Shown here piece by piece: positions 10,334 to 64,000 of a stretch of 64,000 nucleotides of DNA. The notes beneath the pieces are model-generated. The model made no database searches. It saw only the letters and a program-made list of their open reading frames with translations, and had not been told where the DNA came from. The stretch is from positions 1,984,001 to 2,048,000 of the forward strand of contig OY969706.1 of assembly GCA_963702095.1 (NCBI GenBank). The letters are read 5' to 3'. The position numbers were made by a program, and so were the translations under genes. This DNA is from Candidatus Bathyarchaeota archaeon (GTDB taxonomy: Archaea > Thermoproteota > Bathyarchaeia > Bathyarchaeales > Bathycorpusculaceae). Numbering within the stretch: position 1 is the first letter of the stretch; each line of letters begins with the position of its first letter.

Positions 10334-10981
10334 TCGACCTAAAACTCGAAGGCAAAACCGTCATGGTAGTCGGCGGAGGCGCAGAAGCCCACCGCAAACT
10401 CCAAAGCATAATCGGCTCAGGCGCTAAAGTCTGGGTGATAAGCCGAGAATTCTCCGACGAAGTTAAGAAACTCGGCGAGGAAAAGAAGGTTGCCTTGCTC
10501 AAGACAGGCATCAAAGACGCCCAAGCCTTCGTGGACAGCCTCAGCCCAAAACCCTACATACTCTTAGCCGCCACCAACGACAGCGGCCTTCAACTTGGGG
10601 TTGGTTAAAGCCGCCAAATACTACGACTGCATGGTTTATGCGGTGGATAATCCGCAACTGAGCGATTTCATTTTGCCTGCAGTGGCGCATGTAGGCGATG
10701 TGAAAGTGGCTGTTTCCACAGGGGGCAAAAGCCCAGCGATGGCACATGTGCTCCGCGAAAGGATAGAGAAACTAGTCACTCCGCAAGACCTACTTGAAAT
10801 CGAATTACAAGAAAAAGCCAGAACCGCCCTCAAAACCAAGATCTCCGACCCAAGTCTGAGAAGTAAATTGTTATATGAGATATTGAATAACGTAGACATC
10901 AAGCGTGCCCTCTCAGAAGGTAAGCTGACTGAGGCAGAAGAATTAGCTACCAAACGCATCGAAGGAGAAACAAGACAATGA
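10327..10981 (+). pseudogene. sirC: precorrin-2 dehydrogenase (SirC / CysG N-terminal-like), split by one extra base near 10589
   Basis: VVGGG.EA.RK and AATND in one frame; VDNP..SDF..PA and VAVSTGGKSP in the next frame. Confidence 0.88.
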
Positions 10982-11952
10982 GTTTTCCAACTGTACGAAT
11001 GAGAAGACTACGCAGAACCCAAGCCCTGCGCGATATGCTTAACCAGATTACACTCAACCCAGCGCACCTGATTTACCCCATCTTTGTTGAAGAAGGCATC
11101 AAGAAGCCTGTTCCAATCGCGTCTATGCCAGGCTACGCCCGACTGCCCCTCTCCATGGTTGCGGAAGAAGGCAAAGCAGCGTTGGCACAGGGCGTCAAAA
11201 GCGTGCTCCTATTCGGCATACCCGCCAAAAAAGACCAAGAAGGCACCTCAGCCTACGCCCAAAACGGCATAGTGCAGCAAGCCATCCGCGAACTCAAGAA
11301 AGCCCATGGAGACGAACTCGTCGTCATCGGCGACGTTTGCCTCTGCGAGTACATGAGCCACGGTCACTGCGGTATCGTCAAAAACGGTGAAGTACAAAAT
11401 GACTCTACATTGGAGTTACTGGGAAGAATTGCTGTAAGCTATGCCGAAGCAGGTATCGACATCGTTGCGCCCTCTGCGATGATGGATGGTCAAATCATGG
11501 CTATCCGCGAGGCACTTGATGAAACTGGGCACGAGAACAGCCCAATCATGGCATATGCCGCCAAATATGCTTCGGGCTTCTATGGACCCTTCCGTGAAGC
11601 AGTTGAGTCCACGCCTAAATTTGGAGACCGACGCAGTTACCAGATGAGCCAAAGCAGCCCAGAGGAGGCGTTGCGTGAAATGGAACTTGATGTTGCAGAA
11701 GGCGCCGACATGATAATGGTCAAACCCGCCTTGGCATACCTCGACATCATCGCCTTAGCCAAAGCCAACTTTAATGTACCAGTCGTTGCCTACAACGTCA
11801 GCGGCGAATACAGCATGGTCAAAGCTGCAGCTGCCAACGGGTGGATAGACGAAAAAACCATCATCCGCGAAATCCTTGTCGCTATGAAACGCGCCGGCGC
11901 CGACCTAATCATCACTTACCACGCTAAAGACGCAAAATCCTGGTTGACATAA
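10978..11952 (+). CDS. hemB: porphobilinogen synthase
   Basis: RMRRLR, DVCLCEYMSHGHCG, APSAMMDG, FYGPFREA, MVKPA, YNVSGEY. Confidence 0.97.
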   Translation: MSFPTVRMRRLRRTQALRDMLNQITLNPAHLIYPIFVEEGIKKPVPIASMPGYARLPLSMVAEEGKAALAQGVKSVLLFGIPAKKDQEGTSAYAQNGIVQQAIRELKKAHGDELVVIGDVCLCEYMSHGHCGIVKNGEVQNDSTLELLGRIAVSYAEAGIDIVAPSAMMDGQIMAIREALDETGHENSPIMAYAAKYASGFYGPFREAVESTPKFGDRRSYQMSQSSPEEALREMELDVAEGADMIMVKPALAYLDIIALAKANFNVPVVAYNVSGEYSMVKAAAANGWIDEKTIIREILVAMKRAGADLIITYHAKDAKSWLT

Positions 11953-11953
11953 C

Positions 11954-13255
11954 TTGACTGAACCCAAATCCAAAGTGCTCTTTGAGAGAGCCAAAAAAGT
12001 CTTGCCCGGCGGAGTAAACAGCCCCGTCCGCGCATTCGACCCCTACCCCTTCTTCGTCGAATCCGCTTCAGGAAGCAAACTATACAGTGTAGACGGCAAA
12101 ACATACGTTGACTACTGCATGTCTTACGGTGCCTTGCTTTTGGGTCACGCATTCCCAGAAGTCATGGAAGCTGTGAGGGCACAACTTGCCAAAGGCACAC
12201 TCTACGGCGCCCCAACCGAACTCGAAATCCAGTTTGCCGAACTCATAGGCAAAGCCTCGTCCTGTATGGAGATGCTGCGTCTCGTCAGCACGGGCACAGA
12301 AGCCACCATGCACGCCATCCGGGCAGCCAGAGGCTACACCGGCCGCAAAAAAATCGTTAAATTCGACGGTTGCTTCCATGGCAGCCACGACAACGTCTTG
12401 GTCAAAGCGGGGTCAGGCGCAGCCACTTTTGGCACCCCCAACTCATTGGGCATCCCCGAGGAAACAACCCGCAACACTATCGTGCTGCCCTACAACGACG
12501 TGGAAGCGCTCGAAGCCACTTTCAAAGCGGAAGGCAACGACATCGCAGCAGTCATCATCGAGCCGGTGTTGGGAAACGTGGGTTTGATTCTGCCCAAAAA
12601 AGATTATTTGCAAAACTTAAGAAAAATCACCGCTTCAAACGGCACCGTTTTGATTTTCGACGAAATCATCACAGGCTTCCGACTGGCCCTCGGCGGCGCA
12701 CAGGAGTTCTTCCGCGTTAAACCCGACATGGCAACCTTAGGCAAGGTTTTGGGCGGTGGTTTTCCGTTGGCGGCGTTTGGCGGCAAAAAAGAAATCATGC
12801 AAACCATAAGCCCCGTCGGCAAAGTCTACCAGGCGGGCACTTTTAGCGGCAACCCCGTCTCAGCCACCGCAGGCTACACCATCCTCAATTACCTAACCAA
12901 GAACAAGAGCCAAATCTACCCTAAACTCCAAAAAAACGCCTCCGAACTCACCAAAGCCCTAACCGACCTAGCCACAGCCCACAATGTACCCGCACAAGCC
13001 TACAATGTTGCCAGCATGTACCAAATCTTCTTCACCTACAAACCCGTCGTCGACTACGCCTGCGCCAAAACCTCAGACACAACCATGTTCACCACGTACT
13101 TCCAAACCCTACTCAAAGAAGGCGTATTCATTCCACCCTCCCAATATGAAACCTGTTTTGTCTCCGCAGCACACACTGAGGAAGACCTCAAATTCACCAT
13201 CGGCGCCTTCGACAAAGCCTTAGCAGCGGCGGGTAAACTGAGGAAACAGGCATGA
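11954..13255 (+). CDS. hemL: glutamate-1-semialdehyde 2,1-aminomutase
   Basis: PGGVNSPVRA, TGTEATM, FDEIITGFR, GKVLGGG, YQAGTFSGNP. Confidence 0.97.
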   Translation: MTEPKSKVLFERAKKVLPGGVNSPVRAFDPYPFFVESASGSKLYSVDGKTYVDYCMSYGALLLGHAFPEVMEAVRAQLAKGTLYGAPTELEIQFAELIGKASSCMEMLRLVSTGTEATMHAIRAARGYTGRKKIVKFDGCFHGSHDNVLVKAGSGAATFGTPNSLGIPEETTRNTIVLPYNDVEALEATFKAEGNDIAAVIIEPVLGNVGLILPKKDYLQNLRKITASNGTVLIFDEIITGFRLALGGAQEFFRVKPDMATLGKVLGGGFPLAAFGGKKEIMQTISPVGKVYQAGTFSGNPVSATAGYTILNYLTKNKSQIYPKLQKNASELTKALTDLATAHNVPAQAYNVASMYQIFFTYKPVVDYACAKTSDTTMFTTYFQTLLKEGVFIPPSQYETCFVSAAHTEEDLKFTIGAFDKALAAAGKLRKQA

Positions 13256-14187
13256 AGTTGAAAGTTGGCACAAGGGGCAGTAAACTCGCGTTAGCACAGA
13301 CAAACCGCACGCTTGAGTGGATTAAAGCCAAAAACCCCAAGGTAGAGTTCGAACTGAAAATCATCCACACAATCGGCGACAAAGAACACGGCAAACCCCT
13401 CTTCAGCATCGACTGCAAAGGGATATTTGAGAAGGAAATCGATCAGGAAGTTGTTGCAGGCGAAATTGACTTTGCAGTGCATAGCTTAAAAGACGTGCCC
13501 ATTGTGGAGCAGCAGAGTGGCACGGTTTTAGCCTCAATTCCCAAACGAGACTCACCCCACGACGTGTTCATCTCCAAAAACAAGGTTCCGCTAACAAAGT
13601 TGCCCCAAGGCGCCGTGGTTGGTACAGGCAGCCTCCGCCGCCTCGCAGAAATCAAGTACATCCGCCCCGACCTCCAAGTGGAACCCATCAGGGGCAATGT
13701 GGACACACGCATCGGCAAAGTCCGCAAAGGCGACCTCGCAGGCATAGTCATCGCCGAAGCTGGGCTGGAACGCATGGACATCACCAGTGAAATCACAGAG
13801 CGACTCCGCCTCAACGAGTTTCCCTCTGCAGCTGGACAAGGCGCCATTGCAATCGTCGCCAAAGAAGACAACACCGAAGTAATCAAGCTCCTTCAATCAG
13901 TCGAGGATAACGCCAGCCGAGCCGAAATCACCGCTGAACGCAGCCTTGTCCTCAAGTTGGAAGGCGGATGCCGCGTGCCCATCGGTGCAGTCGCCAAAGC
14001 AGACGGCGACAACCTTAGCCTCCACGGCTGTGTGTTCTCGCTGGAGGGGGGCAAAAAAATATTTGCCCAAGCAGAAGGCACAATTTCTCAGGGAGTAGAT
14101 TTGGGCAGAAAAGTGGGCGAAGACCTAATAGCGCAGGGCGCAAAAGACTTCGAAAAGGAATGGAGAGAAAAATATGGCGTATGGTAA
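13252..14187 (+). CDS. hemC: hydroxymethylbilane synthase
   Basis: GTRGSKLALAQ, VHSLKDVP, GTGSLRR, RGNVDTR, GGCRVP. Confidence 0.97.
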   Translation: MKLKVGTRGSKLALAQTNRTLEWIKAKNPKVEFELKIIHTIGDKEHGKPLFSIDCKGIFEKEIDQEVVAGEIDFAVHSLKDVPIVEQQSGTVLASIPKRDSPHDVFISKNKVPLTKLPQGAVVGTGSLRRLAEIKYIRPDLQVEPIRGNVDTRIGKVRKGDLAGIVIAEAGLERMDITSEITERLRLNEFPSAAGQGAIAIVAKEDNTEVIKLLQSVEDNASRAEITAERSLVLKLEGGCRVPIGAVAKADGDNLSLHGCVFSLEGGKKIFAQAEGTISQGVDLGRKVGEDLIAQGAKDFEKEWREKYGVW

Positions 14188-18145: not shown

Positions 18146-18210
18146 CTCAAAGGCTCCTTTTGGGTACATTGATAATCCAGTTGGGCTTAATAATTTAGTG
18201 CTTCGCAAGG

Positions 18211-18222
18211 TTAGTCAAGAAA
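18211..18222 (+). repeat. TTAGTCAAGAAA motif, 14 nt before a TATA-like CTTTAA
   Basis: Exact 12-mer recurs at 62504-62515 with the same 14-nt spacing to CTTATA. Confidence 0.7.
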
Positions 18223-18265
18223 CATGTACAAGAACCCTTTAATTTGATGGTGAACCGAGCATTCT

Positions 18266-19633
18266 ATGGGAACTAACATGCGAAAAGTCTACGGGTTTAC
18301 ACTACTTTTGGTTTTAGCTATCGCACTTCCGGTGCCGTTTGGATCAGCACAGAGCGGAACATTCAAGGGCGGAGTAATCAGCGCCAACGAAACATGGACT
18401 CCAGAAGGCAGCCCCTATAACCTTACAGGCAACCTCCTTATAGCCAGCGGTGTAACCCTGACTGTTCAATCCGGCGTAACCATCAACTTCGGCAACTACT
18501 TTCTATGGGTCAATGGCACCATGAATCTGCAGCCGGGCGTCACCCTCAACATGAACCTATTAGGCGAAAGCCTGCGCGTCAACGGCGTCCTAAAAGCAAT
18601 AGGTACACCCAACAATCCTGTACACATTAACGGGGTAGCGTTGGGCCACAATTTCCCACAGCCCTTCTACTCCTACTCGTCCCTTACCTTCGCCGAGGGC
18701 AGCTCAAGTGACACGGTGGTAGAATATACAGAGTTCACTCAGTCATACCTGGAAATCAGCAACTCCATGAAATTCCAGTACAACAACATGCCCAACGGCA
18801 GCATCATAGTGCATGAGGGCACACCAACCATCAAAGGCAACACCATTCCTGACGGACTCAGCGTTGGAGGCGGCTCCCCAACAATCACCGACAACACCTT
18901 GGGAGCAGTCATGTTCTACAACCTCAACAGCCCCGGAAACGCGGCGGTGTTGCAAAACAACCAGATCCACGGCAGCTTAACAATCTACGCCGAGTGGCAA
19001 CATCTATTGGTTCAGGGGAACACTATAAGCGGCGCTGGCATTGGCATTCAAATCTCTACCGGTCAAAGCGGCGACTCTTTTGATCCACGCTTATACCAGA
19101 ATTCGCAGACCATCATCCAATACAACACCATAACGGGCAACATAGTCGGCGTCTACGTGCCAATCTCCTACACGCCCACTATAACCCACAACAACATTTA
19201 CGGCAACCAAATGAACCTGAAACTTGGCACGTGGGGAGGCATCCCAGCATCAGGCAACATTACCATGATCAACAACTGGTGGGGAACAGCCGATCAGGCG
19301 GCAATACAACAGTCAATCTATGACTACAACAACGACTTCACCTTGGGACACGTCAACTTTGTTCCCTTCCTGTCAGCCCCCGTTTCCGGAGCGCCACCGG
19401 CAACCCCGACAAATTCGACCACTACCCCAACGCCTCAGCCGACAGCTAATCCAACATCTGTTTATCCGACGACAACGCTTCTGCCCCCGTGGAATGGAAC
19501 CACAACACCCCATGGACCCAGCAGCAACAACGGAAGCGGCTCTGACGTGGTGGAAATTGCGATTTTGTCGGTTCTGGTTGTTTTGGCTGTTCTTGTCGCA
19601 GTCTTAATTGTCACATTAAGACGCAGACGATGA
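18266..19633 (+). CDS. membrane-anchored right-handed beta-helix surface protein
   Basis: Signal peptide, Asn-rich I..N.I repeats, NNWWGT, Pro/Thr linker, C-terminal TM helix plus RRRR. Confidence 0.85.
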   Translation: MGTNMRKVYGFTLLLVLAIALPVPFGSAQSGTFKGGVISANETWTPEGSPYNLTGNLLIASGVTLTVQSGVTINFGNYFLWVNGTMNLQPGVTLNMNLLGESLRVNGVLKAIGTPNNPVHINGVALGHNFPQPFYSYSSLTFAEGSSSDTVVEYTEFTQSYLEISNSMKFQYNNMPNGSIIVHEGTPTIKGNTIPDGLSVGGGSPTITDNTLGAVMFYNLNSPGNAAVLQNNQIHGSLTIYAEWQHLLVQGNTISGAGIGIQISTGQSGDSFDPRLYQNSQTIIQYNTITGNIVGVYVPISYTPTITHNNIYGNQMNLKLGTWGGIPASGNITMINNWWGTADQAAIQQSIYDYNNDFTLGHVNFVPFLSAPVSGAPPATPTNSTTTPTPQPTANPTSVYPTTTLLPPWNGTTTPHGPSSNNGSGSDVVEIAILSVLVVLAVLVAVLIVTLRRRR

Positions 19634-19639
19634 TTCTGC

Positions 19640-19776
19640 TGTGGAAAACGCCACAACCAAACGCAACGTTTGCCAAACGCTTGAAGTTTGTTCCACAACC
19701 ACATAGCAACCTGCCGCAAACACCAAACAAAAAAAGCAGCAACCTGCCAAGCCCGCTGGTAGTTGTTGTGCATAGG
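19640..19776 (+). repeat. degenerate non-coding repeat downstream of a surface-protein gene
   Basis: 19750-19776 matches 63965-63991 at 23/27 nt; AAAACGCCACA is shared with 57138-57148. Confidence 0.7.
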
Positions 19777-19906
19777 CGACTTTTCACTACTACTAAGACA
19801 CTAAAAAACGAAAAGCCAAAGAGAAACAACTAATCAAAGAACAACTGAAAGGTTAAAAATAAAAAAAAGAAATTTAAATTGTTAGGACAGATGCATAAGC
19901 TTGCGC

Positions 19907-21124: not shown

Positions 21125-22624
21125 TTATGGTTTTGCTGCTCCTAATTGGGGGATCTTTGAGTTAGCCAATGCTTCCTCGATGTTCTTGCCTTCACTGACT
21201 TTCAGGTCATAAGCCTGTGCAAAGTTGCGAGCGTTAGGCGTTAAGCTAGGGATTGCGAAAAGCAGAAAGTCACATTCTATGTCGCTAATTTTACCGAGTA
21301 TCCGTGTGATTTCCTCCACATCGACTGGTTTTGAGGAAATGAGCACTTCAACTGCGGTGTTGCCGTTGCCGATTTTAGGTGAAGCCTTATTCGGGCTGGT
21401 GTTTTGGGTTTCCATCCAGCCAACACGCCCCAAGATTAGGATGTCAAAGAGGTGCTGGGTGCCTGATCGCCCACTAATAAACGCAGGTGCCACAATCGTG
21501 TAACCTAGCGCCTTGAAGAATTGGGCGCAGGTGTAGAGCGGCTTTATATGGGGCAGTTCCCGCAGAGGAACACGCAAGTTGGCTGTGTACTTATTGAGGA
21601 GAATTTCAGGTTCATCATCCACATCTTCAGCAGAGGTGCAGTCGCCGCATTTGAGGGCAATTTTGGGTTCACTGCTAATTGCGTTGCAACTTAAGCATTT
21701 GTAGGCAGATGGCAATTGGCGGTAATCTGAACCGATAGATTGAAGCTTGCTTTGGCAATTAGGACAGATTAGATCACCGTTTTGCGTTTTGAAATCACTT
21801 TGTGTATCTACTTCACCGCAGGAGAAATGCTCGATTAAAGCTTCTTTACGGATAAGCGGCGACCCGCATTCGGGACAAGTTTTTATCAGCCTAAGGTTAC
21901 CTGAACCGCATGTCTGGCAAACGATAACCTTGTCGACGGGTTCAGCATTCAAGTAGCCTTTTTGAACAAGCGTATCGAGCACTTGTCGACTGTGCTTAGT
22001 ATCCCAGTCCAATTGGGGGATACCCTCATAGAAGTAACCCTCAGGTTTGCTTGCGTCAACTATTGGAGTGATTTTGCTGACTTTACCGAATAGAAAGAGC
22101 TCCATTATACATTGCTCGTCCCGGCGCAAACCCTGATCAAAGTCGGTTTCAGGGGTTTTAGATAAAGCTATGTTGGCGGCAGTTGTGGGTTGAGTTTGGC
22201 TGGCGGCTTTTACGGGGGTTATAACGATTGGTTCATCGTTTTCGTGGGTAACGGCGGATTTGGCGGAACGTTGCCCTATTGCAAAAACGATTCCAAAACC
22301 TAAACCCAATCCTGCTTCCAGCGCCGCTATGAGAAAAATATTCGCAACTAATGGAGCGTTATATTTTATGATATCAATATTTACGCCGACGAAGATAGTG
22401 GTGAAGTTTTGGAATAAACTAAGCGAGCCCAAAGCGTTACTGACTGTGCTGGTGAACAGAAACGCCACTGCTAAGCAAACCGCACCGGCTATTACGGCGA
22501 AGAGTACCAGGGGAAGAGCCTTACGGCTTTGGGATTTAACTGGAACAAAATTGAAAAGTGCCCCTATAATTATTGCGACGGCTATTGTGAGAACGGGAAA
22601 AAGCAGGGAATCAACTGTTACCAT
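21125..22624 (-). CDS. membrane-anchored TackOD1-like multi-zinc-ribbon protein with a C-terminal PD-(D/E)XK-like domain
   Basis: N-terminal TM helices; C..C, CPECG, EHFSCG, CPNC, C..C; GRSGTQHLFDI. Confidence 0.7.
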   Translation of the reverse strand: MVTVDSLLFPVLTIAVAIIIGALFNFVPVKSQSRKALPLVLFAVIAGAVCLAVAFLFTSTVSNALGSLSLFQNFTTIFVGVNIDIIKYNAPLVANIFLIAALEAGLGLGFGIVFAIGQRSAKSAVTHENDEPIVITPVKAASQTQPTTAANIALSKTPETDFDQGLRRDEQCIMELFLFGKVSKITPIVDASKPEGYFYEGIPQLDWDTKHSRQVLDTLVQKGYLNAEPVDKVIVCQTCGSGNLRLIKTCPECGSPLIRKEALIEHFSCGEVDTQSDFKTQNGDLICPNCQSKLQSIGSDYRQLPSAYKCLSCNAISSEPKIALKCGDCTSAEDVDDEPEILLNKYTANLRVPLRELPHIKPLYTCAQFFKALGYTIVAPAFISGRSGTQHLFDILILGRVGWMETQNTSPNKASPKIGNGNTAVEVLISSKPVDVEEITRILGKISDIECDFLLFAIPSLTPNARNFAQAYDLKVSEGKNIEEALANSKIPQLGAAKP

Positions 22625-27551: not shown

Positions 27552-27677
27552 ATTTTTTCACTGCAACAGTAATAGGCAAAAAAGTATTTGTTGACTAAGG
27601 AACCCCAAAAGTCAGTCACAAAAGCAGCGGTTTAGCGAAAGAGGCCCCTCCCTCTATAGGTTTCTGCATAGATATGC

Positions 27678-35122: not shown

Positions 35123-37261
35123 TTGTCGACTAAATCCAATTTCTATACTGAAGAAAACAGTGTTCTGCCCCAAGAGATTAACCTAGATAACCCAAGGTAC
35201 TACATTAATAGGGAACTGAGTTGGGTAAGATTCAACGCCCGCATCCTAGAAGAAGCACGTGATGAATGGCACCCCGTACTTGAGAGAATCAAATTCATCG
35301 CTATATGCGGTAGCAACCTTGACGAGTTTTTCATGACAAGAGTCGCCAAGTTGATAAAGAAAAATAACAAGCGCTCTGAGGAAAAATCCATGGACGACAC
35401 GACCGCTATGGAACAGATAAATGCCACCCGCCAAGAGATTATTCCTTTGCTTGTGAAGCATGCGGATTGCTGGAAAAACGAGCTTGTGCCTGCTCTATCG
35501 AAAGAGGAGATATTTATTCGGCAGTTTAGCGAGTTGCCCGATAGCTCCAAAGAAAGTTTGCGGGAGTATTTTAAAACCGCTATCTTACCTGAAATGCAGG
35601 TTTACAAACCCGATTTTGACAGCGCATGTATAGAGAATCTACGGGTCTGCATATGCGTTGTCGGCTTTGGAGAGGATTCTTATAGGATTGTTGAGGTTCC
35701 AACTGAACATGTTGGCCGCTTAATTGGGTTTCCTCAAAGAACCTACAGGCAGGTTTTAGATGGCGAATTAGAGTTTGTATTTCTTGAAGACCTCATTTGT
35801 AATTGTTTAGACCTTGTTTTTCCAAACGAAAAAAGCATAGCAGGGTATCCTTTTCGGTTGACCCGTAACGGCGAGATAGAAATTCTTATGGATGAATCCT
35901 CTGACTTCATGAGTTCCATAAAGAAGGGGGTTTCCAGAAGGAAAACAGGGTTCCCCACCAGACTTGAATTCGACAAAAGAACGCCCTCAAAAGTCAGGGA
36001 AACAATAACAGCTCACTTTAATTTACCACCGTACTTGATCTACGAGTTTGATGGACCACTAGGGCTTGTAGATTTATGGCAGCTACATAAGGTGAATCGC
36101 CCGGATTTGAAGGACAAAACGTTTCTTCCCTCAATTCTGCCGCTGCTGACTCCCAACGAGAACCTGTTTCAAACTATAGCGAAAAGGGATATTGTCCTCT
36201 ATCATCCCTATGATGGGTTTGAAGTAATCATCGACCTGCTCAAGGAAGCAGCACAGGATAGGGGGGTTGAAAAAATATTCATCACAATGTATCGCATGGA
36301 CCATAAATCCCCCATCGTTGATGCACTCATAGATGCAGTGAGAAACGGCAAAAAAGTAACCGCTATAGTTGAGTTGAAGGCAAAGTTTGATGAAGAAAAC
36401 AATATTTTGCTGGTTTCTAAGTTTAGGGCGGCAGGCATCAACGTGGTTTACAATTTCCCTAACCTGAAAGTCCACGCTAAACTCTGTCTTATAGTTAGGA
36501 AAGAAAAGAAGAACATCGTCAGGTATTCACATATAGGGTCAGGCAACTATAACGCGGTAACCGCAAAAATCTACGGCGACATCGGGTACTTAACAGCTAA
36601 CCATGACGTTGGAGTGGAGTTGGATGAGCTCTTCCACATATTGATTAATGGATTACAGGAAAAAGAGTTCAAGCATTTACTTGTTGCCCCAAGGTCTCTT
36701 AAAAATGAAATTCTTAGACGAATCGATAGGGAAATCGAGGTACACCGCAAAACCGGCAAAGGCTACCTCGCATTTAAACTGAACAACTTAGAAGAGAAAG
36801 ATATCATAAAAGCGCTCTATAGGGCATCTATGGCGGGAATTAAAGTGGACCTTAACGTGAGGGCTCTTTGCTGTCTACGACCAGGAATCAAAGGAGTCAG
36901 CGATAATATCTCGGTGATCTCCATTGTGGGCCGTTTCTTGGAGCATGCCCGCATGTACTTTTTCCAGAACGGCTACGACCATGAACTCTTAATCGGCAGT
37001 TCAGATATGATGTTCCGCAACCTCAACGAACGAGTGGAAGTTCTCTTTAGCGTTCCTGACCCCCAGATTCGATGCGCAATCCTCGAGGACATGCTGAAGA
37101 TACACCTCAAAGATAACGTTAAAGCCAGAAAGCTCCTTTCTGATGGAACTTACGAAAAGGTTTTACCCAAAGAAGGCGAAAAAGGTCTAAATTCTCAGTT
37201 CTGGCTAATTCAAAACCGAGGCATCTGGCATGAATACGCAGCCTACATCTCAGATATGTGA
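35123..37261 (+). CDS. ppk1: polyphosphate kinase 1
   Basis: NRELSW..FN.R, NLDEFFMTRV, HPYD, VELKAKFDE, LKVHAK, GNYN, GRFLEH, RNLNERVE. Confidence 0.96.
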   Translation: MSTKSNFYTEENSVLPQEINLDNPRYYINRELSWVRFNARILEEARDEWHPVLERIKFIAICGSNLDEFFMTRVAKLIKKNNKRSEEKSMDDTTAMEQINATRQEIIPLLVKHADCWKNELVPALSKEEIFIRQFSELPDSSKESLREYFKTAILPEMQVYKPDFDSACIENLRVCICVVGFGEDSYRIVEVPTEHVGRLIGFPQRTYRQVLDGELEFVFLEDLICNCLDLVFPNEKSIAGYPFRLTRNGEIEILMDESSDFMSSIKKGVSRRKTGFPTRLEFDKRTPSKVRETITAHFNLPPYLIYEFDGPLGLVDLWQLHKVNRPDLKDKTFLPSILPLLTPNENLFQTIAKRDIVLYHPYDGFEVIIDLLKEAAQDRGVEKIFITMYRMDHKSPIVDALIDAVRNGKKVTAIVELKAKFDEENNILLVSKFRAAGINVVYNFPNLKVHAKLCLIVRKEKKNIVRYSHIGSGNYNAVTAKIYGDIGYLTANHDVGVELDELFHILINGLQEKEFKHLLVAPRSLKNEILRRIDREIEVHRKTGKGYLAFKLNNLEEKDIIKALYRASMAGIKVDLNVRALCCLRPGIKGVSDNISVISIVGRFLEHARMYFFQNGYDHELLIGSSDMMFRNLNERVEVLFSVPDPQIRCAILEDMLKIHLKDNVKARKLLSDGTYEKVLPKEGEKGLNSQFWLIQNRGIWHEYAAYISDM

Positions 37262-39563
37262 GTTAAACAGGAGTTACTGCAGATTCGGAACGGAAACACT
37301 GCTTAAACTTCTCGACGGCGTCGACAACTTAATCGATGGAGTCGTAGAGAATGTTGATATTGAATGTGTCCATAAAACCCGTGTTGCTTCCCGTCGATTA
37401 AGGGCGGCTCTGCCTCTGTTTAGCGCCTGTTTTGACAAAAAAGACTACAAAGACTGGACAAAGGAAATCAAGAAAGTCACTAAACTGCTTTCCCAAGCAA
37501 GAGACCTTGACGTCCAAATCGCCTTTATCGAACAATACCTAAAAAAACTCAGCTCAGCGGAAGAGAAAGCAGGCATTAATGTGCTACTTAAGGACCATAA
37601 AAGCTGTCGAAAAAACATCCAATCCCAGGTCGATTCAGGGCTAAAAGAACTAAAAGACTGCAGCACCCTCGGCGATGTGGAGCATAACTGCAAGGACATA
37701 CTTGCTCAAGAGCTAAACCAACCCTTTGACCCCGCTCAAGTGCTGGAAAAAGCCCACTGGCACATATCCTATAGACTGGATGATTTTCTGTCGATGGCAG
37801 CCTACGTTTATGTGGAGAAAGAAAAATCAAAGCATCACCAGATGAGGATTTATGCTAAGAAGCTACGTTACACGATGGAGTGCTTTGCTCCTCTCTATCC
37901 AGATAAGCTCAATGGTGAAATAGAAACCATAAAAAACTTCCAAGATGTCCTAGGCGAAATGCATGACTGCGACGTCTGGACCGATTACATCCCCCAATTT
38001 AACAGAAAAATACAGGGAAAAACAAAACTTCCAAAGGGCACAAATAAACAAAAAATCAATCAAGCCCTCCATAACTTCCAAACCTACGTAGTAGACCGCA
38101 GAAAGAACTACTACAACCAGTTCATTAAACTCTGGGAGGAAAAAGAAGAAAACGGTTTTTTTGATAAACTAAGGGAAAAAACTGGGCGACACTATATGGC
38201 GTTAACTCAAGAGAGAATAAAAAAAGCGCTCAGGGACCCTAACGTGAAAATCGCGTTGATATCTGACGTCCATGCTAACCTGCAAGCTCTGGAGAAAGTG
38301 TTTGAAGACGCAATGAGCCGTGGAGCCAACGTTTTTCTCAATGCAGGCGACTCAATCGGTTTCGGCGCTAACCCCAACGAAGTGATAAAGTTGCTTTGTG
38401 AAAGAGGCGTCTTAAGCATCATGGGCAACTATGACTTAGAAGTGTTAGAGGGTAAAAGTGATGCTAAAGCAGAAAAAAAGGCAGCTTACAAATTTGCCAA
38501 AAAAGAACTGTCACAGTCAGCGAACTGTTATCTTCAGTCTTTGCCGCATGAACTCCGCCTTGAAGCAGTAGGACAGAAACTTTTCGTTACCCATGGAAGC
38601 CCCGAATCCATCGAAGAACACATTTACCAAGATACTCCGCCACAGCGTCTTGAAGTTTTTGCGGCTGTCGCCCAAGCAGACATCATTGTCGGGGGGCATT
38701 CGCATGAGCAGTTTCAGCGGACAACAAACGGAACCTGCTTTGTGAATCCGGGGAGCGTGGGCAGACCCGGCGACGGCAACCCTCAGGCCGGCTACGCTCT
38801 CCTCACCTTCAACCCCCTCAATATTGAATTGGTCAGGGTGGATTATGATGTTTGGGCTGCTGCAGACGCACTTAGAAAAGAGGGGCTGCCGGAGAGTTTT
38901 GCACAGATGCTTCTGTATGGAGTATCCCTTGATGTTATAACAAAGGAAGATCATGCTAAAGCTGGCTTTTCTGAGGCAGACTGCACAAGGGCGGTGGATG
39001 CATCAGGTAAGTTTTCGCGGGAACTATGGCCGGACGTTGACCATTATAAACAGGTAACTAATCTTGCGTTAGGCTTGTTTGATGGGCTGGCTAAATTGCA
39101 CAAGTTGGGTAAGCGGGAGCGTTGCTGGTTGGAATGCGCCGCCATATTACATGATGTCGGCTTGTCAAAAAACAGCGGTAAACACCACAAAAGCTCGATG
39201 CAAATCATCTTAAACAGCACCCAACTGCCGTTTCCATCCATGGATAGAAGGGTAATCGCAAGCATCGCCCGATACCACCGCAAGGCAATGCCGAAACAAA
39301 AGCACTACAATTTAACTACTTTAAACCGCGCCACAATCCATAAAATCTGTATTTTATCGAGTCTTCTGCGTTTGGCAGACAGTCTTGATTACACTCATGA
39401 ATCCGCCGTTAAACTGTTAGGCATCAAAGTTGGGACCAAAAAAGTAACTGTTGAATGCGTTTCTAAGACGGATTTTGCACTGGAAGAGCAGGCGTTTATT
39501 AAGAAGAAGGACTTGTTTGAAAAAGTCTTTAATAGAAAAACGATGCTGGTATGGAAACAGTGA
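37230..39563 (+). CDS. CHAD + YfcE-like metallophosphoesterase + HD-domain fusion protein
   Basis: VHKTRVASRRLR, RDLDV, HQMRI.AKKLRY, QDVLG.MHD (CHAD); SDVHAN, GD, GNYD, HGSP, GHSH, NPGSVG; LHDVG, ARYHRK, LRLADSLD. Confidence 0.9.
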   Translation: MNTQPTSQICELNRSYCRFGTETLLKLLDGVDNLIDGVVENVDIECVHKTRVASRRLRAALPLFSACFDKKDYKDWTKEIKKVTKLLSQARDLDVQIAFIEQYLKKLSSAEEKAGINVLLKDHKSCRKNIQSQVDSGLKELKDCSTLGDVEHNCKDILAQELNQPFDPAQVLEKAHWHISYRLDDFLSMAAYVYVEKEKSKHHQMRIYAKKLRYTMECFAPLYPDKLNGEIETIKNFQDVLGEMHDCDVWTDYIPQFNRKIQGKTKLPKGTNKQKINQALHNFQTYVVDRRKNYYNQFIKLWEEKEENGFFDKLREKTGRHYMALTQERIKKALRDPNVKIALISDVHANLQALEKVFEDAMSRGANVFLNAGDSIGFGANPNEVIKLLCERGVLSIMGNYDLEVLEGKSDAKAEKKAAYKFAKKELSQSANCYLQSLPHELRLEAVGQKLFVTHGSPESIEEHIYQDTPPQRLEVFAAVAQADIIVGGHSHEQFQRTTNGTCFVNPGSVGRPGDGNPQAGYALLTFNPLNIELVRVDYDVWAAADALRKEGLPESFAQMLLYGVSLDVITKEDHAKAGFSEADCTRAVDASGKFSRELWPDVDHYKQVTNLALGLFDGLAKLHKLGKRERCWLECAAILHDVGLSKNSGKHHKSSMQIILNSTQLPFPSMDRRVIASIARYHRKAMPKQKHYNLTTLNRATIHKICILSSLLRLADSLDYTHESAVKLLGIKVGTKKVTVECVSKTDFALEEQAFIKKKDLFEKVFNRKTMLVWKQ

Positions 39564-41128
39564 AAACCGCAGAACGTGTCGTGGGATTCATTGATATCGG
39601 CACAAACGCCGTACGACTTCTAGTGGTTAGGATAAACCCAAACCTTTCTTACACGATAATAAGCCAAGAGAAAGAAGTAGTGAGGCTAGGCGAACAGGAA
39701 TTCAAAGATTGCATTCTAAGACCTGACGCTAAGGAAAGAGCTATTTTCGTATGCGGTAAATTCGCTGCGCTAGCTAGAACCTACGGTGCAGACGAAATCG
39801 TTTCGGTTGGAACTTCAGCGATTAGGGAAGCCATAAACAGAGACGAATTTCTTGGGGAACTTAAAGCGAAAACTGGGTTAGAAGTTAAGGTTATTTCGGG
39901 GCAAGAGGAAGCAAGGCTCATCTGGTTGGGCGTATCCAGCGGGATAGACATCGGCGACCAAAAAGCGTTGTTCATAGATTTAGGCGGAGGCAGCACTGAA
40001 ATTGCAATCGCAAATCAAAACGAATGCTTCTACATCAACAGCCTCCGCTTGGGTGCAATCCGTTTGACTTCACAGTTTATCGGTGAAGGCTGGACTGGAC
40101 CCATAAGCGCCGAAACATACAAGCAAATCCGGAACTACTCCTGCAACAAAATAAACATCGTAAAATCCCGAGTTCTACAATACGGTGTCAGGTTAGCGTG
40201 GGGTTCTTCTGGGACGATGATTAATCTGGCAGAGGTTTCGAATAAACTGTTCAAGAAAACTGCCGGCGAAAAGGAACTGGTATTGTCCAGAAAGAACCTC
40301 AAAAAATTGGCCACTGTGCTTTGTTGGCTGCCCCTTGAGGAACGAAGAAAAGTACCAGCCATCAACCCTGACCGCGCAGATATTATTATCGCTGGAGCCG
40401 CGATAATCGAAGCGGTTATGGAACAGTTTGGACTCGAAGAAATAAACATCAGCCACCGAGAACTCCGAGACGGCCTACTGGTTGACTACCTCTCCAAGTA
40501 TGAAGGCTTTAGGCAACTTCAAAAAACCCCTATGAGAAACCGCAGCATTTTGCATTTGGGGAGATCATGCAATTTCGATGAGAAACACGCTGAAACAGTC
40601 ACTACATTGGCTTTACAGCTTTTTGACAGTGCAAAACAGGTTGGTTTACATCGCATGGGCGAAAAAGAAAGAGAACTGCTAAAACACGCGGCTACTCTCC
40701 ATGACGTCGGCGACTTTCTCTCCTTCAACAATCACCATCTCCACTCACACTACATCATCAGTAACGCGGGGCTCCCAGGCTTCGATAAGGAAGAAATCCA
40801 AATCATTGCTAACATCGCCCGTTTCCACAGAAAAAAGTTGCCTTCCAAGAAAGCCCTAAAATATGAGGGGCTCGACGAGGAAAACAAAGACACTGTGGCG
40901 TTACTATCTACGTTTTTGAGGTTTGCTGAAAAACTTGATCGAAGCCACTGTGGGTTGGTGAAGAAAGCAGAGTTTGTCAAGGTCAATAAAGACCAAGTGC
41001 TTCTTAGGTTCTATTCAGACACGGATTGTAGCCTTGAAGAGTGGAGTATCATCCAGAATCGGCAGGCGTTTTTCGAAGCGTTCGAGAAGCAGTTGGAAGC
41101 GCAATGCATCGAAACCCCCAGCAAATAG
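39551..41128 (+). CDS. ppx: Ppx/GppA exopolyphosphatase with an HD domain
   Basis: IDIGTN, TSAIREA, EEARL, DLGGGSTE, RADII, LRDG, LHDVG. Confidence 0.95.
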   Translation: METVKTAERVVGFIDIGTNAVRLLVVRINPNLSYTIISQEKEVVRLGEQEFKDCILRPDAKERAIFVCGKFAALARTYGADEIVSVGTSAIREAINRDEFLGELKAKTGLEVKVISGQEEARLIWLGVSSGIDIGDQKALFIDLGGGSTEIAIANQNECFYINSLRLGAIRLTSQFIGEGWTGPISAETYKQIRNYSCNKINIVKSRVLQYGVRLAWGSSGTMINLAEVSNKLFKKTAGEKELVLSRKNLKKLATVLCWLPLEERRKVPAINPDRADIIIAGAAIIEAVMEQFGLEEINISHRELRDGLLVDYLSKYEGFRQLQKTPMRNRSILHLGRSCNFDEKHAETVTTLALQLFDSAKQVGLHRMGEKERELLKHAATLHDVGDFLSFNNHHLHSHYIISNAGLPGFDKEEIQIIANIARFHRKKLPSKKALKYEGLDEENKDTVALLSTFLRFAEKLDRSHCGLVKKAEFVKVNKDQVLLRFYSDTDCSLEEWSIIQNRQAFFEAFEKQLEAQCIETPSK

Positions 41129-41376
41129 CAGTAAACTGGGTTATGGAGAGCCCAACGTTCCTTTATAAAAACGGGGGATACCTCTAAGATAGGTCGCGTG
41201 GGCTCCAACATGGCTTTTGAGCTGCTTGAGGAAAACGCCTCAACCATATAGCACCCCATCTCCGTTGCAGAACCCAAACAGAGCCGTCTGCCAAGCCCCT
41301 AAGAAGATGATGAGCAAGGGGCACTCTCTCTTCTTCTTAAACTAGAAAACACAACTTGCCATTCTGCAGGATGCGG

Positions 41377-47349: not shown

Positions 47350-48444
47350 TTAATGGGTCGGTATGGCTTGTCCGTTGAAAGTTATTGAGTTAAGCGTTGC
47401 TTCGTCGATCTGAACTAGGTTTGAGGGAAGCGTTGCATATTCTAGTGAAGGCGCAAGTTGCTGACCGTCATGCACTACATACCACATGTATTGCACAATT
47501 GCTGTTGCTTTGTCTATTGTCATGCCATCGACTACGCCGAGGTCTTTGTATATCAACATGTATGTTGGAGTCACAATTGGGTAGGCTTGAGCACCCGAGG
47601 TGTTGAGTATGGAAACATCTGCCCAACTGTCACTTCCAGACGGAAGGGAACTTGGAAGCGCTTGAGCTGCTGCTGTTGTTGAGTCCAGTGTGGGGAGAAT
47701 ATAGTTGCCCGCTGGGTTTTGGATTGCTGCCACGGTTACGTCGTTTTGTAAGGCGTAGGCTAATTCGATGTATCCGATGGCATAGTCTGTTGTGGTGACT
47801 GTCGCTGCAACGGCTGAGTTGCCGCTTTGACCTGTTCCGACTGGCCATTGAACAGTGGTGTTTGCTCCGACGTGTGTACTCCATGTGTTACTGACTAGTG
47901 AGAGGTATTTTGTGAACCAGTTGGTTGTTCCTGAACCGTCTGATCTGTGTACAACAGCTATGGAGTGGTGTGGTAACGTCAAGTCTGGGTTGAGCGCTAC
48001 GATAGCTGGGTCATCCCACGTTGTTATTGTGCCAAGGAAGATGTTAGCGATTACAGGACCTGAGAGTTTTAGACCGGAGTCAATACCGGGTAGGTTGTAA
48101 GCGACTGTGATTGCACCGATGGTTTCTGGGATGTGGACGGTGTCAGGCGCTGCTGCTCTCTGAGAAGCAGACAAGGGCGCGTCTGAACATGCGAAGTCAA
48201 CGACTTTGTTTGTGAGGTCGCTGACACCTTTGCCGCTGCCGCCACCTTGATAGTTAATTTGTACATTTGGTTTCATGGAAGAGTATTCGGTTATTGTTGC
48301 ATTAAGGAATGGCTGGGGGAAAGTTGCGCCTGAAGCGGTTAAAGCGATTGTGGGAGTGCTTGGGGTTGATAGATAGACGTATGCTGCTACACCGCCGATT
48401 ATTATTACGATTGCGACTATTGCTAATATGATTGAAGTCTTCAA
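47350..48444 (-). CDS. pstS: phosphate ABC transporter substrate-binding protein
   Basis: GATFP, GGGSGKG, SDAPL, HRSDGSGTT, IGYIE, AYPI. Confidence 0.96.
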   Translation of the reverse strand: MKTSIILAIVAIVIIIGGVAAYVYLSTPSTPTIALTASGATFPQPFLNATITEYSSMKPNVQINYQGGGSGKGVSDLTNKVVDFACSDAPLSASQRAAAPDTVHIPETIGAITVAYNLPGIDSGLKLSGPVIANIFLGTITTWDDPAIVALNPDLTLPHHSIAVVHRSDGSGTTNWFTKYLSLVSNTWSTHVGANTTVQWPVGTGQSGNSAVAATVTTTDYAIGYIELAYALQNDVTVAAIQNPAGNYILPTLDSTTAAAQALPSSLPSGSDSWADVSILNTSGAQAYPIVTPTYMLIYKDLGVVDGMTIDKATAIVQYMWYVVHDGQQLAPSLEYATLPSNLVQIDEATLNSITFNGQAIPTH

Positions 48445-48482
48445 ACTTATTTCCTCACTTGCCCTAATTGGAAAATAAGTTA

Positions 48483-48563
48483 CTTATATTGAACCTACGT
48501 ACAAGCTATAAACTATATAGATATAGCATATATAATTAGTAGATGCTAAAGACACTATATTAG
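48483..48563. promoter_or_regulatory. divergent pstS/regulator promoter with clustered CTATA(TAG) elements
   Basis: CTATATAG at 48513, CTATAA at 48506, CTATATTAG at 48555. Confidence 0.55.
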
Positions 48564-48582
48564 AGCAGGTTGAGACTTTCTC

Positions 48583-49632
48583 TTGACTAAAGAAGAAGCA
48601 AAACTAAACGAGGAACAACGGAAACTCCAAGTCACAGGCGGATCAACTTTCATACTGTCGCTTCCCAAAGAGTGGGCAACGAAAAATGAACTTAAACGCG
48701 GAAGCTCGATGCTGGTCCGCGAAGAAGACGATGGCTCACTGTCTATTGCGCCCGCAAGTTTTCCTAAAAAAGAAAAACAAGACGAAGCCTTCATTAGGGT
48801 AGGACAAACCGACAACCCTGACGCCGTAATGCGGACAGCAATATCAGCCTACTTAAACGGCTACAACATACTCCACATTCGATCACAAGGACAAAAAGTC
48901 CTCTCATCTAAACTACGCAACCACCTCAAACACTTCGCAAGACACTACCTAGTGGGCACAGAAATCGTCATAGACACACCCACAGATTTAACGTTACAGG
49001 TTTTGCTCAATTATCCTGAATTAACGGTGCAGAATGCTTTGAGTCGCATGGCAATCATCGCTTCATCCATGCATAAAGAAGCTATCTCGGCACTCAAAAA
49101 ACTGGATACCCAGAGCGCTAAAGCAGTTATCGAAACAGACCGCGAAGTCAACCGTTTCGGCCTCTATATCGTACGCCTGTTGAAGCTGGCGGTTTCAAAC
49201 CAGAGGATAGTTAAAGAAATTGGGTTAAGCTACCAAAAAGAATGCTTGGGCTATAGGCTAATCGCTAAAGCGGTAGAGAGAACCGCTGATCACGCCACAA
49301 AAATCGCTGAAAACACTCTGCTACTCAAGGAGCCAGCAAACGCAGAATTCCTCGAAAAAATCAGCCAGCTAAGTGAGTCGGCGAATTCAATGTTTGACAA
49401 CGCAATGGAAGCCCTCTTCAAACGTGACTTTAACTTAGCCGAAAATGTCCTTGAGAAACTCAGTTACGTACATAAAGTTGAGGAAGAAACAGTATTGCGC
49501 TTGCCTAACGCAAAAGTCGATGACATGGTCAACTTGAGGTTGATAATTGAAAGCGTCAGGCGTACTGCGGAGTATGCAAGTGATATTTCTGAAGTTGTGC
49601 TTAACCTTAATGTTGAATCGGTCTTAAGCTAA
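48583..49632 (+). CDS. archaeal phosphate uptake regulator (AbrB-like domain + PhoU domains)
   Basis: RKLQVTGGSTFILSLPKEW; ERTADHA; RRTAEYA.DI. Confidence 0.92.
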   Translation: MTKEEAKLNEEQRKLQVTGGSTFILSLPKEWATKNELKRGSSMLVREEDDGSLSIAPASFPKKEKQDEAFIRVGQTDNPDAVMRTAISAYLNGYNILHIRSQGQKVLSSKLRNHLKHFARHYLVGTEIVIDTPTDLTLQVLLNYPELTVQNALSRMAIIASSMHKEAISALKKLDTQSAKAVIETDREVNRFGLYIVRLLKLAVSNQRIVKEIGLSYQKECLGYRLIAKAVERTADHATKIAENTLLLKEPANAEFLEKISQLSESANSMFDNAMEALFKRDFNLAENVLEKLSYVHKVEEETVLRLPNAKVDDMVNLRLIIESVRRTAEYASDISEVVLNLNVESVLS

Positions 49633-62055: not shown

Positions 62056-62426
62056 TATGAACGTGAAACGACAGATGAAGAGTTAGATAGGCAGCCAAAG
62101 ATTTGCAAGAGACTTGGGGTGAGGGAACGTTTTGGTGCGACGCCCGCTTTCCTCAGTCTATTTTGAAGCTTTGCCGTGCAGGTCTAGACGCTAAGCCCTA
62201 CACTTTCAAACGAGAAGATGGCTTGCGAGAACTTGGAAGCCGCCTAACACCTGCGAGTGATGGGCATCCCCGCCAGTTTGTAAGCAAACGCTGCGTTAAC
62301 CTCATATCAGAATTGTTGGAGTATCGGGAAGACGTCAAGGAAAACGATCATGCGACCGATGCTTTGCGGTATAGTTTGCCGCTTACAGCCGAAGAGAAGC
62401 CGTTTCTGTATATAGTTAGACGTTGA
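62056..62426 (+). pseudogene. C-terminal remnant of a viral terminase large subunit (nuclease domain)
   Basis: WCD..., FVSKRCVNLISELLEY, NDHATDALRY; no ATPase domain; frameshifted 5' part. Confidence 0.7.
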
Positions 62427-62503
62427 CGATAGTGAGGATATACCCCACGTAGCAAGTCGATGGTCACGAAAGTTGACAATATGTTCTAGCTATTAGCTCA
62501 GGC

Positions 62504-62525
62504 TTAGTCAAGAAAGTTTGACGAA
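62504..62525 (+). repeat. TTAGTCAA-GAAAGT-TTGACGAA imperfect inverted repeat with a 6-nt spacer
   Basis: 7/8 arm match; the left 12 nt are identical to 18211-18222. Confidence 0.65.
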
Positions 62526-62567
62526 TTCCCTTATATCATTCATGCATTCTAACAACATATTGAAAGG

Positions 62568-63713
62568 ATGGATGGTATGAACAAAGGTTCAGTCTTAGCA
62601 ATTGCTCTCATTTTTCTAATGTCATTGGGTGTGCTTCCATTTGCTACAGTAAAGGCCCAATCAACAACGATTGTTGTTCCCGATAATTATCCATCAATTC
62701 AAGATGCGATAAATAACGCTAATGCAGGTGATACCATTTACATCAAGACTGGTACTTATGTGGAAAATCCAGTTGTCAATAAATCGGTTTCATTGGTTGG
62801 GGAAGATAGGGATGCAACTGTAATTGATGTGACAGCAGGTTTGAAGGTAGAAAGCGATAATGTAACCATAACAGGCTTGACCATATATGATGGTTGGCAA
62901 GGAATAACAGTAACTGCAAACTATTCAAAAATTTCAGGAAACAAGATAACAGATACTCAATACGGCATAGTATTACTAAGTTCACAAAATAGCACTATAA
63001 CGGAAAATACACTTCAATCAATCGGACTTTCGGCAGCTATTCAATTAAGCTACTCAAACAACAATTTGCTTAAGAATAATTATATTGAATCGTGCACAGA
63101 GGGAATTCAGCTTAGAGCAGGCAGTTCAAATAATATGGTTATAGAAAATATCATAACAAACTGTCAAGATGTAGCTATACGATTACTAGCGGAATACTCT
63201 CCCCCAAGATGGTATAATCCAAACGGCAACACAATAATGCGAAATAATATCTCAAATTCAGGATGCGGAACATCCGTTTATGGTTCAAGCAATAACATCA
63301 TATCAAATAATGACTATGTTAACAACACCATACAGTTTTCTGCTAATGAAGACTATTATCTTACATGGGGCGGTAGTCATTCAACTAATACTATTGACCG
63401 AAACTATTGGAGTAACTATAACGGGACAGACGCTAATAGAGATGGCATCGGTGACACCCCATTCATTATAGACTCCTACAATAAAGATAACAATCCTGTT
63501 ATGGCCCCAATTCCAGTTACTTTACCTAATTATGGTCCAACTTCCTCTCCAACCCCAACCATCAATACTGGTCCGCATATGCCAGAAACAGAGCCGTTCC
63601 CAACTTCAACACTTTTAGTTGGTGCTTTGATTCTTTTAGCGGTTGTTATCGCATCAGTTTTGCTTTTTAGAAGGCATCGAAAAACCGCTAATTTGGGTAA
63701 GAAGAGTCTATAG
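62568..63713 (+). CDS. NosD-like beta-helix surface protein with an EPFPT-TM-basic C-terminus
   Basis: VVPDNYPSIQDAIN.A..GDTI, NYWSNY.G.D...DGIGDTP, EPFPT plus TM plus RRHRK. Confidence 0.88.
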   Translation: MDGMNKGSVLAIALIFLMSLGVLPFATVKAQSTTIVVPDNYPSIQDAINNANAGDTIYIKTGTYVENPVVNKSVSLVGEDRDATVIDVTAGLKVESDNVTITGLTIYDGWQGITVTANYSKISGNKITDTQYGIVLLSSQNSTITENTLQSIGLSAAIQLSYSNNNLLKNNYIESCTEGIQLRAGSSNNMVIENIITNCQDVAIRLLAEYSPPRWYNPNGNTIMRNNISNSGCGTSVYGSSNNIISNNDYVNNTIQFSANEDYYLTWGGSHSTNTIDRNYWSNYNGTDANRDGIGDTPFIIDSYNKDNNPVMAPIPVTLPNYGPTSSPTPTINTGPHMPETEPFPTSTLLVGALILLAVVIASVLLFRRHRKTANLGKKSL

Positions 63714-63814: not shown

Positions 63815-64000
63815 CACACCCACAAAAGAAAAAACAAGTTAGCCCCTCCAAAGGGATGGGAGAGGCGGCAGAGCAACAGAGGCTTCTATGATCTTGATTG
63901 CTTCTGCTTGCAGAATCATATACAACCAGCTTGCAGACCGCAGAATCAGCCAACGCAAAAGCAGAGCCCATTGGAAGTTGTTGTGTATAGGGGGTTTCCT
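63815..64000 (+). repeat. degenerate non-coding repeat downstream of a surface-protein gene (runs off the window)
   Basis: Shares blocks with 57145-57180 and 19750-19776; ends ATAGGGGGTTTCCT. Confidence 0.65.

Follow-up and report, generated by a model that had tools for sequence, protein, structure and literature searches.

The window analysed here is a 64,000-nucleotide stretch (G000:C1:1984001-2048000) of a Bathyarchaeia genome, G000, which consists of a single contig of 2,937,366 bases with a G+C content of 46.8%. Relatives of one window protein in public contigs come almost entirely from Bathyarchaeia or Bathyarchaeota MAGs of soil, peat and wetland origin, the best match being 91% identical. 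Three public wetland DNA runs list this genome, each at a small share, and no RNA run lists it.

Two loci of the window have the same layout. At the first, a plus-strand promoter (18207..18254), made up of an operator, an A-rich BRE-like stretch and a TATA-like box, precedes the plus-strand gene of a 455-residue surface protein (18266..19633, from the list of open reading frames). When its ends were read by eye, the protein was seen to have an N-terminal signal-like segment, a Thr/Pro-rich linker and a C-terminal hydrophobic helix with an Arg tail. A Pfam scan gave no match for this protein, and its match to the parallel beta-helix repeat model TIGR03804 (E=0.0011) fell slightly short of the cut-off. 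The ATG at 18278 may be the true start of the gene. Downstream, also on the plus strand, lies a copy of an interspersed repeat (19670..19810; nhmmer E=3.1e-34, profile positions 3-143) that folds into a hairpin and has no recognisable terminal inverted repeats. Between the two, a stretch that may be an additional, incomplete copy of the repeat's 5' block (19637..19669, plus strand) was noticed by eye and carries no model score; it begins at the stop codon of the 18266 gene and resembles the 5' block of the copy that relative G007 has at the same site.

At the second locus the same order of operator, BRE and TATA is found in the promoter at 62500..62547 (plus strand; alignment A6), which is followed by a plus-strand gene (62568..63713) for a NosD-like parallel beta-helix surface protein of 381 residues. 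This assignment comes from Pfam and NCBIfam (PF05048, 7.7e-19; PF13229, 8.4e-19; TIGR03804, 5.5e-13), and by eye the protein opens with a signal-like segment and closes, at the C-terminus, with a hydrophobic helix and basic tail. A repeat copy begins at 63896 on the plus strand, reaches the last base of the window and runs on to 64024 (nhmmer E=2.3e-31); it is flanked by the surface gene on one side and by the 3' end of a minus-strand 16S rRNA gene on the other. The third repeat copy of the window (41214..41346, plus strand; nhmmer E=4.6e-8) has another type of hairpin and lies downstream of a Ppx/GppA phosphatase gene (39551-41128, Pfam) rather than of a surface-protein gene. Searches of the window with Rfam at the gathering threshold and for tRNAs gave no match.

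A sequence-only reading of the window had noted that both surface genes are preceded by one 12-mer and followed by one 27-nt pattern. From these it had proposed a gene-cassette or site-specific recombination system in which the right and left motifs would be parts of one longer site. The strings are as that reading gave them. The 12-mer is present in exact copies at 18211 and 62504, in both cases with the TATA-like box 14 nt further on, and the 27-nt patterns at 19750 and 63965 agree at 23 of 27 bases, where chance would give an expectation of 0. The last bases of the window and the string on the minus strand at 27591-27606 had also been quoted correctly. With up to two mismatches the 12-mer occurs 20 times in the window (8.5 expected; none of 100 shuffles reached 20), and there are 13 exact copies in the genome.

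The proposed joining of the motifs did not survive reading past the end of the window. The left motif had been predicted to come next after position 64000, but the bases found there form the 3' arm of a hairpin; about 160 nt further along, the minus-strand 16S rRNA gene has its 3' end. Those bases are complementary to the right motif, which is therefore the 5' arm of this hairpin, and they pair with it instead of completing a longer site. The minus-strand site at 27598 is an isolated half-site that scores below 14 bits with the promoter matrix described below.

A predicted palindromic operator at surface-protein promoters

A predicted 22-nt palindromic operator, placed at a fixed distance from the BRE and TATA elements, has the left motif as its distal half; in the 18266 promoter this half is the 12-mer at 18211-18222. 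Genome-wide the 12-mer has 80 matches with at most one mismatch, many of which extend into the 22-nt palindrome followed by a TATA-like box, and a second palindrome is often present 24 nt upstream of the first. The sequence-only reading had suggested building a motif model and scanning the genome with it. A 48-nt promoter matrix, obtained in three rounds of refinement with the reversed genome as control, gave 67 sites at 18 bits or more against none in the reversed genome, and 92 sites against 2 at 14 bits or more. The promoters of the 18266 and 62568 genes score 39.2 and 33.8 bits, respectively. A TATA-like box is in place at 31 sites and for 30 of these an ORF starts within 300 nt, in most instances 54-77 nt after the start of the matrix. 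The 18266 promoter aligns without gaps with 21 others, and in this alignment of 22 promoters the core bases are invariant and the distance to TATA is fixed.

A sequence-only model made from the 22-promoter alignment (model R1, with which the 18266 promoter scores 38.6 bits) matched 22 of the 24 same-genus genomes searched, at up to 39 sites per genome. In one genome from a different family it matched at 25 sites, and the remaining 15 genomes of that search had no match.

The genes behind these promoters are largely those of anchored surface proteins. Inspected by eye, 21 of the 31 ORFs proximal to a site encode a signal-like N-terminus together with a C-terminal hydrophobic helix and basic tail, and four more encode the N-terminal segment alone. 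We scanned 22 regulon proteins (20 plus the two window genes) with Pfam and NCBIfam. NosD or parallel beta-helix models matched five and PQQ-type propeller models two. Two ORFs of 59 residues gave RING-like zinc-finger matches that were below threshold, and most of the others had no family, among them a set of 250-290 residue proteins that look paralogous by eye. The PEF-CTERM sorting signal was considered for the C-terminal anchors; there was no NCBIfam match at E <=0.01 and we do not claim it. At the best operator sites of 11 other genomes, seven of the 11 precede complete ORFs with signal and anchor, and one more ORF runs off its locus.

The palindrome would most likely be bound, at about 30 promoters, by a putative dimeric DNA-binding regulator. 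Archaeal activators are known to act from sites upstream of the BRE, and because the operator sits just upstream of the BRE, and not over TATA or the transcription start, activation is more likely than repression; the putative regulator would more probably recruit TFB/TBP than repress. The result would be co-regulation of secreted, membrane-anchored proteins of the beta-helix and beta-propeller kinds and of the 250-290 residue paralogous family. A shared regulon had been named as the alternative to cassettes in the sequence-only reading; it holds for the left motif and fails for the right one. Upstream activating sites bound by dimeric regulators beside BRE/TATA are known for Ptr2 of Methanocaldococcus and for EarA of Methanococcus, which acts on the archaellum operon. 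Those sites resemble the operator in being palindromic or repeated, in lying just upstream of the BRE, sometimes in tandem, and in governing surface structures. The operator differs from them in having an unrelated sequence and in serving about 30 single genes of anchored surface proteins in an uncultured lineage. A literature search on Bathyarchaeia promoters returned nothing relevant.

A hairpin-bearing interspersed repeat

The right motif belongs to an interspersed repeat of about 135 nt, of which, as judged from sequence and predicted folds, it is the stem and hairpin; at 19750-19776 it provides the long-range stem and hairpin 5' arm of the 19670..19810 copy. The exact 16-nt core of the motif occurs five times in the genome. 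An nhmmer search (E<0.001) with a profile built from these five copies found 174 copies in the 2.94-Mb genome, on both strands, of which 150 are almost complete and share a conserved core of about 135 nt. Crude ORFs of at least 100 codons cover half or less of 153 of the 174 copies, which are mostly intergenic, and orientation relative to neighbouring genes is about even (51, 49, 41 and 33 copies in the four classes). The copies are about 70-80% alike and contain no long ORF. When Rfam was searched around five copies with E values up to 1, 16S and one tRNA were found and nothing else.

The hairpin comes in two types (59 and 88 of 152 copies, with five unclear) that differ on both arms with pairing preserved. 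Single-sequence folds of the two types gave -13.6 and -11.2 kcal/mol versus -7.1 and -6.2 for shuffled sequences, and the first type has 131 G-U pairs on the element strand as compared with 16 on the opposite one. RNAalifold found no consensus structure in pooled or per-type alignments save four weak pairs. The 5' block of the repeat gave no convincing hairpin or covariation (-8.9 versus -6.6 kcal/mol for shuffles), the top mutual-information pairs being adjacent columns. In a draw of 41 genomes, taking the best 21 candidates per genome, many copies were found in G000, G005 and G007 only and some in G008, G024 and G016; the 16 genomes of other families had none among their best 21 candidates. 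Of 120 genomes drawn from the genus, 11 had a match to the repeat at E <=1e-8 among their best seven candidates.

This repeat is most probably the core of a MITE, a transposable element that is non-autonomous. In a comparison over 20 kb, G000 carries 262 nt (L094 9547-9808) that are absent from G007 and G005. The ends of this insertion are imperfect terminal inverted repeats matching at 11 of 14 positions, and it is flanked on each side by an identical set of four A+T bases that is found once, with one mismatch, in G007. At a second empty site another copy is missing from G007. Taking the end 12-mers by coordinates from the 262-nt insertion, we found both at a spacing of 163-329 nt in 16 of 155 copies, as compared with 5 of 2000 random places; a further 20 copies have the 5' end alone, 32 the 3' end alone and 87 neither, and those at the 18266 and 62568 loci have no recognisable ends. 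Among the 16 two-ended copies, read by eye, four have identical A+T-only 4-mers at the two ends and five more match at three of four bases. The end 12-mer is informative only through pairing at element-length spacing, because its single matches (145 and 142 genome-wide with up to two mismatches) are no commoner than those in the reversed genome (135 and 126). Exact inverted 11-mers were found at only 10 of 150 copies and are mostly chance.

Full copies of the element would be 163-262 nt long, with imperfect terminal inverted repeats of 12-16 nt and four A+T bases duplicated on insertion. The element would have spread to 174 mostly intergenic places, and most copies, including the three in the window, would be old and lack recognisable ends. 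Copies shared with G007 are 0.88, 0.80 and 0.77 identical, similar to their own flanks; as these are orthologous, the family partly predates the split of G000 and G007. At two orthologous positions the hairpin type differs between the two genomes. The difference is likely to have arisen by exchange between copies or by re-insertion, since point mutation is an unlikely source of it at 77-88% identity.

A mobilizing enzyme was sought in G000 with models for DDE_Tnp_1, DDE_3, Y1_Tnp and the TnpB zinc ribbon (PF01609, PF13358, PF01797 and PF07282). These gave no match, and the controls were positive. No pair of end repeats in G000 encloses a transposase-like ORF, and the only well-matching long pair encloses a hexapeptide transferase. 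The strong, strand-asymmetric hairpin near one end and the lack of terminal inverted repeats in most copies would also suit a REP/BIME or IS200/IS605-derived element moved as single-stranded DNA by a Y1 transposase. We consider such an origin very improbable, given that neither Y1 transposase nor TnpB zinc ribbon has a match in the genome and that the clean insertion has both terminal inverted repeats and a 4-bp duplication. The IS200/IS605 mechanism is not known to make either.

Like prokaryotic MITEs, the repeat is small, mostly intergenic, present in many copies, restricted to a taxon and variably present between relatives, with apparent terminal inverted repeats in a subset and a short target duplication. 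It departs from them in that recognisable ends are missing from most copies and that G000 gave no match to a partner transposase of the four families. A further difference is its core, which combines a strand-asymmetric hairpin of two compensating types with codon-like periodicity. Archaeal MITEs are known from Sulfolobus. With REP/BIME, Correia and Rickettsia palindromic elements, which are known for these traits, the repeat shares short length, a hairpin and a position near gene ends, and Rickettsia elements likewise keep an open frame. It is unlike these elements in that G000 has no Y1 transposase match, its copies lie between genes, not in frame within them, and its frame stops within the hairpin.

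The periodicity is seen in the middle of the core, where variability by codon phase is 0.34/0.17/0.43, and one frame from the start of the core stops 23, 24 or 26 codons past a fixed anchor in 105 of 172 copies, the stop falling inside the hairpin. These features, together with a hairpin kept in both types through changes on two arms and the excess of G-U pairs on one strand, would suit a core that is itself a working unit carried by the element, be it a structured small RNA, a terminator or a micro-ORF of about 30 codons. Orthologous cores differ by a 12-nt indel and are 0.77-0.88 identical, like their flanks, and end repeats, seen in 23% and 31% of copies, are less frequent than the core; these observations were also counted in its favor. 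Nevertheless, we regard a working unit as unlikely. No start codon is conserved, and the median in-frame stop lies 20 codons before the anchor. The pN/pS values (Nei-Gojobori counts) give no clear coding signal: in the middle of the core this frame has 0.66 and the other two have 0.72 and 1.25, and the value for the 5' block is 1.39. In addition, a peptide profile run against all ORFs of at least 70 codons matched repeat copies alone and no long protein, and one conceptual peptide had no match among public predicted proteins. Further points against a working unit are the failure to match Rfam, the pooled RNAalifold result and the unbiased orientation relative to genes. It is decidedly improbable that a transposable element has spread the core as a functional module and not as a dead relic, with each copy supplying a strand-specific structured RNA or a micro-ORF and with copies swapping hairpin ends, so that types differ at orthologous sites.

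The two motifs at variable surface genes

We estimate at about 85% the probability that the operator and the MITE are two independent features that flank the two surface genes by chance. Each is an ordinary feature of a known kind, and the two were wrongly merged into the cassette model. Several observations bear on their independence. Only five of the 174 repeats lie within 500 nt downstream of a regulon gene, one of the three window copies follows the phosphatase gene, and the repeat consensus never runs on into the operator. The two also differ in phylogenetic spread, the operator being in 22 of 24 same-genus genomes and the repeat in 11 of 120 (among the best seven candidates per genome).

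The 18266 gene is indeed a variable insert, as the sequence-only reading would have it. Genes flanking this locus are conserved in G003, G014, G007 and G008, and the segment between them (L027 1662 to ~3354) is not. G003 has 136 nt at this place, without the 18266 gene, and G014 has 464 nt with an operator-like site and a TATA-like box, with both gene and repeat absent. G007 has a different anchored-protein gene and two repeats, one of which is in the same spot beside the right-hand flanking gene and has the other hairpin type than that of G000. At the other locus, G007 and G008 also have the repeat next to the 16S gene, G005 has part of it, and G003 and G014 lack it; the DNA upstream of it differs.

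These comparisons contain arguments for a recombinase that moves surface genes between sites of which the right and left motifs are halves: both motifs occur at two surface genes of the window, neither G003 nor G014 has the two-motif 18266 gene at the orthologous site, and in G007 the repeat keeps the same flanking gene while the adjoining surface gene differs. However, the breakpoints between species at the 18266 locus fall outside the motifs, about 49 nt to the left of the left motif and 40-47 nt to the right of the repeat, and G014 retains an operator without the gene. Surface genes vary between species and the motifs are not the break sites. The other arm of the hairpin in place of the left motif past the window end, the dispersal of repeats on both strands with so few downstream of regulon genes, and the contrast between a genus-wide operator and a narrowly distributed repeat also argue against cassettes. 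As the sequence-only reading had noted, no recombinase is visible in the window; all seven tyrosine recombinase matches of the genome lie outside it. Integrons do offer a parallel in the attC site of their gene cassettes, an imperfect hairpin-forming site, here downstream of a promoter-bearing variable gene, but the present loci neither form an array nor share an orientation, no integrase adjoins them, and their site is independent of cassette ends. Given the failed read-through, the dispersed repeat, the differing distributions and the off-motif breakpoints, the proposed gene-cassette or site-specific recombination system is unsupported and we find it barely credible.

A milder form of linkage would be that the promoter module of about 50 nt and the repeat of about 135 nt serve as portable homology, so that homologous recombination could swap the surface genes lying between them. 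Repeats are enriched about threefold downstream of regulon genes: five of the 25 regulon genes of at least 100 codons have one within 500 nt, a share that among crude genes is 181 of 2683 (p=0.025). Presumably the two cases that prompted the idea of a link are among the five. The repeat retained beside different surface genes in G000 and G007 at two loci, the unlike hairpin types at orthologous sites, which suggest exchange between copies, and one synteny break at a repeat boundary would all fit such swapping. On the other hand, the enrichment is weak and its five cases presumably include the two prompting ones, 20 of the 25 regulon genes have no repeat within 500 nt downstream, and copies that are about 70-80% alike are a poor substrate for homologous recombination. 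Swapping by portable homology thus has a poor chance of being correct, and we retain the reading of two independent features.

Implications for Bathyarchaeia

One consequence is the removal of a false lead, in that there is no new cassette or recombination system at these genes. The repeat is a probable MITE family in Bathyarchaeia, and a literature search for MITEs in Bathyarchaeia or Bathyarchaeota found no paper on any. The main text of a census of prokaryotic MITEs (PMC11602168) does not include Bathyarchaeia, and its supplementary lists may hold this family. Knowing the repeat aids assembly and annotation, as contig breaks in G007 coincide with such loci. Were the core a working unit after all, each genome of one soil-dwelling Bathyarchaeia lineage would hold more than 100 RNA or micro-ORF units. 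The odd features of the repeat, provided that they are real, would be relevant to the way in which small RNAs or peptides are seeded by mobile elements. The conserved operator marks about 30 genes per genome across one genus, and would be the first cis-regulatory handle on the surface-protein genes of this uncultured and abundant group of soil and peat archaea.

Repeat copies and the modules beside them

At two orthologous positions the hairpin type of the interspersed repeat differs between the source genome (G000) and the related genome G007. One is the window copy at 19670-19810, the counterpart of which lies in G007 locus L032, and the other is the copy at 10665-10801 of G000 locus L096, the counterpart of which lies in G007 locus L151. 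Despite this difference the 5' parts of both pairs align well. Locus L096 also contains a 3-kb segment (10628-13708; G000:C1:2622627-2625707), in place of which the matching G007 contig has 234 nt, with a repeat copy at the left edge in both genomes. In locus L095 a break in synteny between G000 and G007 begins exactly at the 5' end of a repeat copy (position 2717).

Some repeat copies in G000 are adjoined, in either orientation, by a second repeated module that is G+C-rich and about 25-45 nt long. It is found at about 63855-63879 of the window and beside several copies elsewhere in G000, and in some cases long inverted flanks are formed.

Other genes of the window

The variable surface-gene site is adjoined by a gene (21125-22624, minus strand) encoding a protein that matches TackOD1 ("thaumarchaeal output domain 1"; E=9.7e-43). 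A phosphate gene neighbourhood occupies 35123-41128 and 47350-49632 and encodes polyphosphate kinase, a CHAD-phosphoesterase-Ppx fusion and Ppx/GppA, followed by a PstS-like binding protein and a PhoU/MazE-domain protein. By eye, the translation of a plus-strand ORF at 62103-62426 resembles the C-terminal part of the large subunit of a phage terminase. The stretch 62056-62455 has at least five counterparts of 81-88% identity in the related genome G014, versus one in G000.

Operator sites and small ORFs with weak zinc-finger matches

In G014 the intergenic space orthologous to the 18266 locus of the window (G014 locus L033, about 1037-1501) retains a TATA-like box and an operator-like site, and the only ORF behind them has about 30 codons; the arrangement looks like a promoter left stranded by gene loss.

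Two 59-residue ORFs of G000, at C1:2245420-2245599 (plus strand) and C1:905101-905280 (minus strand), are paralogues of each other (loci L111 and L119), and both give weak, sub-threshold matches to RING-like zinc fingers. Each is preceded by a tandem operator pair, and one of the two is among the best-scoring. These ORFs are candidates for a member of the regulon, or for its regulator.
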